DNA of 64,000 bases. It comes from Escherichia coli (GTDB lineage Bacteria > Pseudomonadota > Gammaproteobacteria > Enterobacterales > Enterobacteriaceae). Below the pieces are notes generated by a model that saw only the letters and a list, made by a program, of their open reading frames with translations, was not told the DNA's origin and did no database searches. The stretch's first letter is position 1, and each line of letters begins with the position of its first letter. Of the stretch, positions 39,650 through 40,310 are shown one piece after another. The translations under genes were made by a program, and so were the position numbers. Location: NCBI RefSeq assembly GCF_003334785.1, contig NZ_QOWV01000005.1; one strand, 5' to 3'.

Positions 39650-39659
39650 GCCGAAATTT

Positions 39660-39712
39660 GCTCGTATCTACAATGTAGATTGATATATACTGTATCTACA
39701 TATGATAGCGGT
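39660..39712. promoter_or_regulatory. mazEF promoter/operator region containing palindromes
   Basis: ATCTACAATGTAGAT perfect palindrome (39666-39680) followed by TATATACTGTATCTACATATGATA, directly upstream of mazE. Confidence 0.6.
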
Positions 39713-39726
39713 TTGAGGAAAGGGTT

Positions 39727-39975
39727 ATGATCCACAGTAGCGTAAAGCGTTGGGGAAATTCACCGGCGGTGCGGATCCCGGCTACGTTAATGCAGGCGCT
39801 CAATCTGAATATTGATGATGAAGTGAAGATTGACCTGGTGGATGGCAAATTAATTATTGAGCCAGTGCGTAAAGAGCCCGTATTTACGCTTGCTGAACTG
39901 GTCAACGACATCACGCCGGAAAACCTCCACGAGAATATCGACTGGGGAGAGCCGAAAGATAAGGAAGTCTGGTAA
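39727..39975 (+). CDS. mazE: Antitoxin MazE
   Basis: 82 aa; matches MazE from memory; overlaps the mazF start by 1 nt. Confidence 0.95.
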
Positions 39976-40310
39976 TGGTAAGCCGATACGTACCCGATAT
40001 GGGCGATCTGATTTGGGTTGATTTTGACCCGACAAAAGGTAGCGAGCAAGCTGGACATCGTCCAGCTGTTGTCCTGAGTCCTTTCATGTACAACAACAAA
40101 ACAGGTATGTGTCTGTGTGTTCCTTGTACAACGCAATCAAAAGGATATCCGTTCGAAGTTGTTTTATCCGGTCAGGAACGTGATGGCGTAGCGTTAGCTG
40201 ATCAGGTAAAAAGTATCGCCTGGCGGGCAAGAGGAGCAACGAAGAAAGGAACAGTTGCCCCAGAGGAATTACAACTCATTAAAGCCAAAATTAACGTACT
40301 GATTGGGTAG
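39975..40310 (+). CDS. mazF: Toxin MazF, ACA-specific mRNA interferase
   Basis: 111 aa; matches MazF from memory. Confidence 0.95.
   Translation: MVSRYVPDMGDLIWVDFDPTKGSEQAGHRPAVVLSPFMYNNKTGMCLCVPCTTQSKGYPFEVVLSGQERDGVALADQVKSIAWRARGATKKGTVAPEELQLIKAKINVLIG

Follow-up and report, generated by a model that had tools for sequence, protein, structure and literature searches.

The mazEF Toxin-Antitoxin Cassette and its Self-Repressing Operator at the relA-mazG Junction of Escherichia coli

Introduction

The mazEF genes of Escherichia coli were the first chromosomal toxin-antitoxin module to be described. The main references for the K-12 system are Marianovsky et al. 2001, Kamada et al. 2003 (PDB 1UB4) and Zorzini et al. 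2015 (PDB 2MRU). In the reviews that summarize Marianovsky et al. 2001, mazEF is transcribed from two promoters, P2 and P3, which lie 13 nt apart and of which P2 is about ten times stronger (PMC4803016). According to the same summaries, MazE represses both P2 and P3, MazE-MazF represses them more strongly, and the operator is termed an 'alternating palindrome', its middle part pairing with either the upstream or the downstream part. The downstream arm (site 'b') is reported to overlap promoter P2 (PMC3879964). A Fis site just 5' of the palindrome that activates transcription is also described in one review (PMC4803016).

The DNA analysed here, referred to as the window, is a stretch of 64,000 nucleotides from E. 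coli. It is practically certain that a segment of about 690 bp (39650 to ~40340) at the relA-mazG junction is mazEF, the type II toxin-antitoxin cassette found on the chromosome of E. coli K-12, with a self-repressing operator. What was determined in this work is the identity of the DNA, its genes, its repeats and the published oligonucleotides, together with the accessory status of the cassette; the statements on binding, promoters, Fis and RNA cleavage come from the literature on the same sequence. All of the findings on mazEF are already known, as the operator, the promoters, the structures and the strain distribution are in the literature. A preliminary description of this DNA had called the segment a mazEF module, and the call was right; it rested in part on what was already known of the system.

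Arrangement and Identity of the Genes

Four genes are found on the + strand in the order relA, mazE, mazF and mazG. The upstream neighbour, relA (37415-39649), encodes a GTP diphosphokinase of 744 residues, ends with a TAG stop codon at 39647-39649, and is found both in the open reading frame listing and as annotated relA in the identical stretch of MG1655. It is followed by the 77-bp relA-mazE spacer (39650-39726, +), which is the mazEF promoter/operator region and the left end of the accessory cassette. The mazE antitoxin gene (39727-39975, +) encodes 82 residues with an AbrB/SpoVT-type DNA-binding N-terminus and a disordered MazF-binding tail. It starts with the ATG at 39727, 7 nt after a GAGGA Shine-Dalgarno sequence (39715-39719, +), and ends with TAA at 39973-39975. 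The mazF toxin gene (39975-40310, +; 111 residues) runs from the ATG at 39975-39977 to the TAG at 40308-40310, so that base 39975 is common to the mazE stop and the mazF start. Its Shine-Dalgarno sequence, AAGGA (39961-39965, +), lies within the 3' end of mazE, 9 nt 5' of the mazF ATG. This is the type II toxin-antitoxin layout, in which the antitoxin gene lies directly 5' of the toxin gene on the same strand, here with a 1-nt overlap. Read from the sequence, the overlap and the position of the mazF Shine-Dalgarno sequence inside mazE would be consistent with translational coupling of the two genes.

The 3' tail of the cassette (40311-40346, +) includes the right junction, at ~40340-40347, with DNA that is common to cassette-free genomes. 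It lies in the 70-bp mazF-mazG spacer, after which the downstream neighbour mazG, annotated in MG1655 and encoding a nucleoside triphosphate pyrophosphohydrolase, starts with the ATG at 40381 (40381-41172, +). In the part of this spacer that cassette-free genomes share, just 5' of mazG, there is a promoter-like sequence, CTGACA-16-GACAAT (40350-40377), which may be mazG's own promoter. The co-directional genes, the 1-nt mazE/mazF overlap and the 77-bp spacer had all been given in the preliminary description, and every number agrees with the sequence and the open reading frame listing.

The DNA from 39400 to 40500 is 100% identical to that of E. coli K-12 MG1655, as well as to that of many other strains. 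The flanking order in MG1655 is barA, rlmD, relA, mazE, mazF, mazG, pyrG, eno. MazE matches the NCBIfam equivalog NF007312 with 196.2 bits (cut-off 113), MazF matches the equivalog NF007386 over residues 1-111 of 111 with 227.4 bits (cut-off 120), and MazG scores 416.5 bits on TIGR00444 and 368 bits on an NCBIfam equivalog (cut-off 208). The catalytic residues E24 and R29 are both present in the window translation of MazF. The E24A variant of MazF is reported to be inactive (PMC5888573). Residues W9, N11 and R16, which are named in the literature as the DNA contacts of MazE, are all present in the window translation. Full-length matches to solved structures were obtained for MazE (PDB 1MVF, 1UB4 chain C and 2MRN/2MRU) and for MazF (PDB 3NFC, 5CK9 and 1UB4 chain A, E ~1e-73). 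ACA-specific cleavage of single-stranded RNA has been published for a protein identical to the window MazF, and cleavage by MazF of its own message in vivo has also been published. The mazF gene contains nine ACA sites and mazE contains two, and these counts agree with the published ones. An antisense RNA, aMEF, starts within mazF and is reported to stimulate mazEF expression.

Repeats in the relA-mazE Spacer

The sequence ATCTACAATGTAGAT is found at 39666-39680, and its reverse complement is ATCTACATTGTAGAT. It had been described as a perfect 15-bp palindrome. The repeat is present at this position, with two fully complementary arms, ATCTACA (39666-39672) and TGTAGAT (39674-39680), that are 1 nt apart; however, it is a 7+1+7 inverted repeat, since the central A, which cannot pair with itself, precludes a strict 15-bp palindrome. 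[quoted passage not shown] The alternating palindrome that the preliminary description placed next to the 15-bp repeat does exist, but it is not separate from it. The two share the middle arm and therefore constitute one three-arm element, not two neighbours. Small palindromes are located between the middle and third arms (ATATAT/TATATA, 39683-39689) and at 39699-39704 (CATATG), and a 9-nt direct repeat, GTATCTACA, occurs at 39664 and 39692.

Could these palindromes be chance features of A+T-rich DNA? The G+C content of the spacer is 36%, and when the 77 bp were shuffled 5000 times with the composition kept, some 7-bp inverted repeat turned up in 7% of the shuffles. However, the observed number of repeats was reached in 0.4% of the shuffles. 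The three-arm arrangement, defined as X, the reverse complement of X, and X again with gaps within 20 bp, is seen at two places in the 64-kb window versus 0.11 expected from first-order Markov simulations. The other place is an unrelated hairpin near 50.7 kb. Natural variation also speaks against chance. Eight natural alleles were sampled across the identity range, and in seven of them the arms are unchanged while the flanking spacer bases vary; the spacer substitutions, at 39652, 39657, 39659, 39661, 39707 and 39709, all lie outside the three arms. In addition, the binding of MazE to these sites has been measured in published work. An origin by chance has next to no probability.

The only change in an arm among the eight alleles is in strain HS (locus L011), where a C to T substitution at 39671 breaks the left arm; perfect pairing in the arm of site 'c' is therefore not essential. 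According to a review, many mutations in the palindrome left binding intact (PMC4803016). The same HS substitution converts TACAAT to the consensus TATAAT at 39669-39674.

It might also be supposed that the inverted repeats act as RNA structure and not as a DNA operator: they could terminate relA, serve as a processing site or form a hairpin in the mazE leader. The repeats start 17 nt past the relA stop, and in the predicted fold 39666-39680 pairs with 39694-39704. The predicted energy, -16.8 kcal/mol, is nevertheless no better than that of shuffled sequence (z = 0.09), a T-run is absent, a scan gave no terminator on the + strand, and a 7+1+7 repeat is unable to form a hairpin with a 1-nt loop. 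The Rfam search gave no family match at E-values up to 1. On the fold z-score and the lack of an Rfam family, an RNA-structure role for the repeats was rejected, and direct published measurements of MazE binding to duplex DNA make it a very improbable explanation.

MazE Binding and the Operator Sites

The reading of the spacer as a MazE/MazF autoregulatory operator, which the preliminary description had proposed, is borne out by the exact mapping of the published oligonucleotides cab, 'c', 'a' and 'b' to the spacer, with the 7+1+7 repeat in site 'c'. The 50-base 'cab' oligonucleotide, which holds three MazE-dimer sites, has an exact single match with no mismatch at 39661-39710 (PMC4333400). 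Each of the individual sites also has an exact and unique match. Site 'c' (39664-39682) has the 7+1+7 repeat in its middle and binds MazE(1-50) with a KD of 0.6 uM; site 'a', TTGATATATACTGT (39680-39693), contains ATATAT at 39683-39688 and has a KD of ~5 uM; and site 'b' (39685-39703), which includes the third arm ATCTACAT, has a KD of 2.1 uM (PMC4333400).

Studies done by Zorzini et al. (2015) using calorimetry gave a KD of 0.6 uM and three sites for the binding of MazE(1-50) to cab (PMC4333400). Across the published operator oligonucleotides the KD values range from 0.6 to 5.6 uM, and control DNA was bound very weakly by MazE. The DNA of site 'a' is that used in the NMR/SAXS model of MazE bound to DNA, 2MRU. 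It was also shown that MazF raises the affinity of MazE up to a ratio of ~1:1 and enhances the gel shift, and that excess MazF lowers the affinity (PMC4333400). A 2016 review calls site 'a' the one best bound by MazE (PMC4803016). This disagrees with the calorimetry table that the review cites (PMC4333400), in which 'c' is tightest at 0.6 uM versus ~5 uM for 'a'.

Start-site mapping and MazE-MazF gel shifts, which the preliminary description had suggested as checks, were published between 2001 and 2015 with positive results (Marianovsky 2001, as summarized in PMC4803016; PMC4333400). Positive results have also been published for MazE-dependent repression with a spacer reporter. Calorimetry and an NMR model of MazE on this DNA are in print as well as the promoter mapping and gel shifts, so that the suggested checks have already been done.

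Promoters and Fis

The exact -10 hexamers and the Fis coordinates given in this section are inferred in the present analysis, as is the translational coupling mentioned above. By eye, two candidate -10 hexamers were read on the + strand, TATACT (39686-39691) and TATGAT (39701-39706). It is plausible that these belong to P2 and P3, as they would fit starts spaced 13 nt apart and a P2 that overlaps arm b; the starts are predicted near 39698 and 39711. A generic sigma-70 consensus scan gave nothing convincing as a promoter in 39650-39710 and did not report the candidate hexamers. Its hits were one that overlaps the mazE start codon, one inside mazE and one before mazG.

The sequence GGCCGAAATTTGCTC at 39649-39663 is tentatively assigned as the Fis site. 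It fits the degenerate Fis consensus GNNYRNNWNNYRNNC, which is too loose to carry statistical weight, with 89 matches in the window versus 138 in shuffles.

The Accessory Cassette and the Stringent Response

Of 5426 complete E. coli genomes, 4419 carry the spacer, which is identical in 2835 of them, and mazE and mazF each gave the same count of 4419. In the other 1007 the relA-mazG junction is intact and the cassette is missing. Alignment of the two forms shows that homology ends exactly at 39649/39650 and returns at ~40340-40347, with ~57 unrelated bases taking the place of the cassette in the cassette-free genomes. The break in homology comes right after the relA stop; the promoter/operator is therefore part of the cassette and not of relA. 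No flanking direct repeat was seen at the cassette ends in the alignment of both forms. The G+C content of the cassette is 45.5% versus 53.8% for relA. In UTI89 and similar strains the relA-mazG operon is undisturbed, and in Salmonella parDE is found at the same junction (Fraikin et al. 2020, PMC7167474).

A search of plasmids with the cassette DNA found no plasmid copy of the operator. One record filed as a plasmid in PLSDB, NZ_OL790696.1, is a 4.8-Mb E. coli record that carries the cassette at 99.4% identity and is the sole such match. It is almost certainly a misfiled chromosome. A rule that the cassette-free genomes are those of phylogroup B2 was considered and dropped, as strain S88, which belongs to phylogroup B2, carries mazF.

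Why is this module found next to relA? The preliminary description had it embedded in a stringent-response neighbourhood, which holds only as a statement about map position. A functional version of this idea is that ppGpp made by RelA stops mazEF transcription, MazE decays, MazF brings about programmed cell death, and MazG resets the system. The genes are co-oriented, and a + strand scan from relA to mazE turned up nothing that resembles a terminator. Furthermore, mazEF is reported to be co-transcribed with relA and mazG and to be repressed by ppGpp (Aizenman 1996 and Gross 2006, as summarized in PMC4803016 and PMC7167474). However, the genomes in which relA-mazG is intact without the cassette (1007 of 5426) weaken the functional tie, and the cassette has its own promoter and operator and the lower G+C content given above. 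The 2020 review of Fraikin et al. denies a functional link between the mazEF insertion and the stringent response, points to parDE in Salmonella, and finds the ppGpp data contradictory (PMC7167474). A functional role for the position is rather unlikely on these grounds. Caution over a link to the stringent response is warranted because in about one-fifth of E. coli genomes the relA-mazG junction is intact and the cassette is missing from it.

Within the cassette the two genes vary to different extents. Among the 4419 cassette genomes, counted without regard to kinship, mazE is at least 99% identical to the window in 4252 (96%) and mazF in 3106 (70%). In three divergent genomes mazE shows 0 differences in 249 bases, and the end of relA (39200-39649) differs by 1.6-4.9%. 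The uniformity of mazE could reflect either a recent horizontal spread of the 5' half of the cassette or a nucleotide-level constraint beyond protein coding, such as antisense RNA or mRNA processing. This is held to be a doubtful proposal of low probability.

Other Features of the Window

A very stable 19-bp hairpin (~50720-50761) followed by nine T residues lies in 50704-50770, between divergent open reading frames and ~30 nt 5' of an ATG at 50793 (+). The 106 nt from 50690 to 50795 fold to -42.4 kcal/mol (z = -6.8), and AGTTACC upstream (50704) could pair alternatively with GGTAACT (50726). Judged by these sequence features, 50704-50770 looks like a terminator/antiterminator leader.

A single initiator-type tRNA-Met gene is located between amiC and mltA (3603-3679, -). 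In most complete E. coli genomes the annotation shows two or more tRNA-Met genes in tandem at this position, and a 701-bp query that spans it is covered to 80% or more by only 226 of 5426 genomes. From these counts, the window would be either a minority copy-number variant or a collapsed repeat.

A type I toxin-antitoxin locus is found by cysH (63610-63904), where an Rfam match to sok (113 bits, 63610-63767) overlaps an open reading frame for a Hok-like protein of 50 residues (63752-63904). The known small RNAs CsrB (26551-26910, +), GcvB (8165-8370, -) and ES036 (5107-5149, +) are also present and are ordinary.

Working of the System

With the literature on this sequence taken together, the cassette works as follows. 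[quoted passage not shown] Transcription of mazEF starts from the two promoters, 13 nt apart, within the 77-bp spacer. MazE dimers repress and MazE-MazF complexes repress harder, through occupancy of the three adjoining sites 'c', 'a' and 'b' (39661-39710). The logic of these sites is that of the three-arm inverted repeat, the middle arm (39673-39680) being able to pair with either 39666-39672 or 39694-39701. An excess of MazF loosens binding, that is, conditional cooperativity, and Fis bound just upstream switches transcription up. MazF further cleaves its own message, and expression is also adjusted by the antisense RNA within mazF.

Comparison with Known Systems

In the comparison with E. 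coli K-12 MazE-MazF (ChpAI-ChpAK), the DNA (39400-40500), the operator oligonucleotides and the proteins are the same, and no difference was detected. The second MazEF-type pair of E. coli K-12, ChpS-ChpB of the chpB locus, has the same folds and the same order of antitoxin followed by toxin, but it is a distant paralogue located at another chromosomal site. Against the ChpS model (cut-off 101) the window MazE reaches 34.6 bits, and against the ChpB model (cut-off 129) the window MazF reaches 55.2 bits.

MazEF pairs encoded on plasmids of Klebsiella, Providencia and Proteus (e.g. pDD02172-3 and p15793C_57) have MazE proteins that are 40-46% identical to that of the window, and their genes also overlap by 1 nt. 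W9, N11 and R16 are conserved in the plasmid relatives of MazE and invariant in the two that were compared. The DNA identity of these pairs to the window, 65-69%, does not extend beyond mazF and the 3' end of mazE, and their operator sequence is unrelated. Multi-arm palindromes are again found upstream of the genes; in the Providencia plasmid an 8+1+8 repeat is accompanied by one more half-site. Plasmid records that match the cassette DNA number 143, and 110 of these are typed conjugative.

Similarities extend to other plasmid systems. Like mazEF, Kis-Kid (parD, plasmid R1) and PemI-PemK (R100) combine a toxin of homologous fold (Kid, PDB 1M1F, E = 7.6e-9) with an AbrB-type antitoxin. Two palindromic repeats are found in their operator, and as in mazEF the toxin:antitoxin ratio tunes repression. 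They differ from mazEF in being plasmid-borne, in their role in plasmid maintenance, in their low sequence identity and in the sequence of the operator. CcdA-CcdB of the F plasmid resembles mazEF in the structure of its toxin, CcdB being similar to MazF, in its multi-site operator, and in a repression that varies with the toxin:antitoxin ratio. However, CcdB poisons gyrase and is not an RNase, and CcdA is a ribbon-helix-helix protein.
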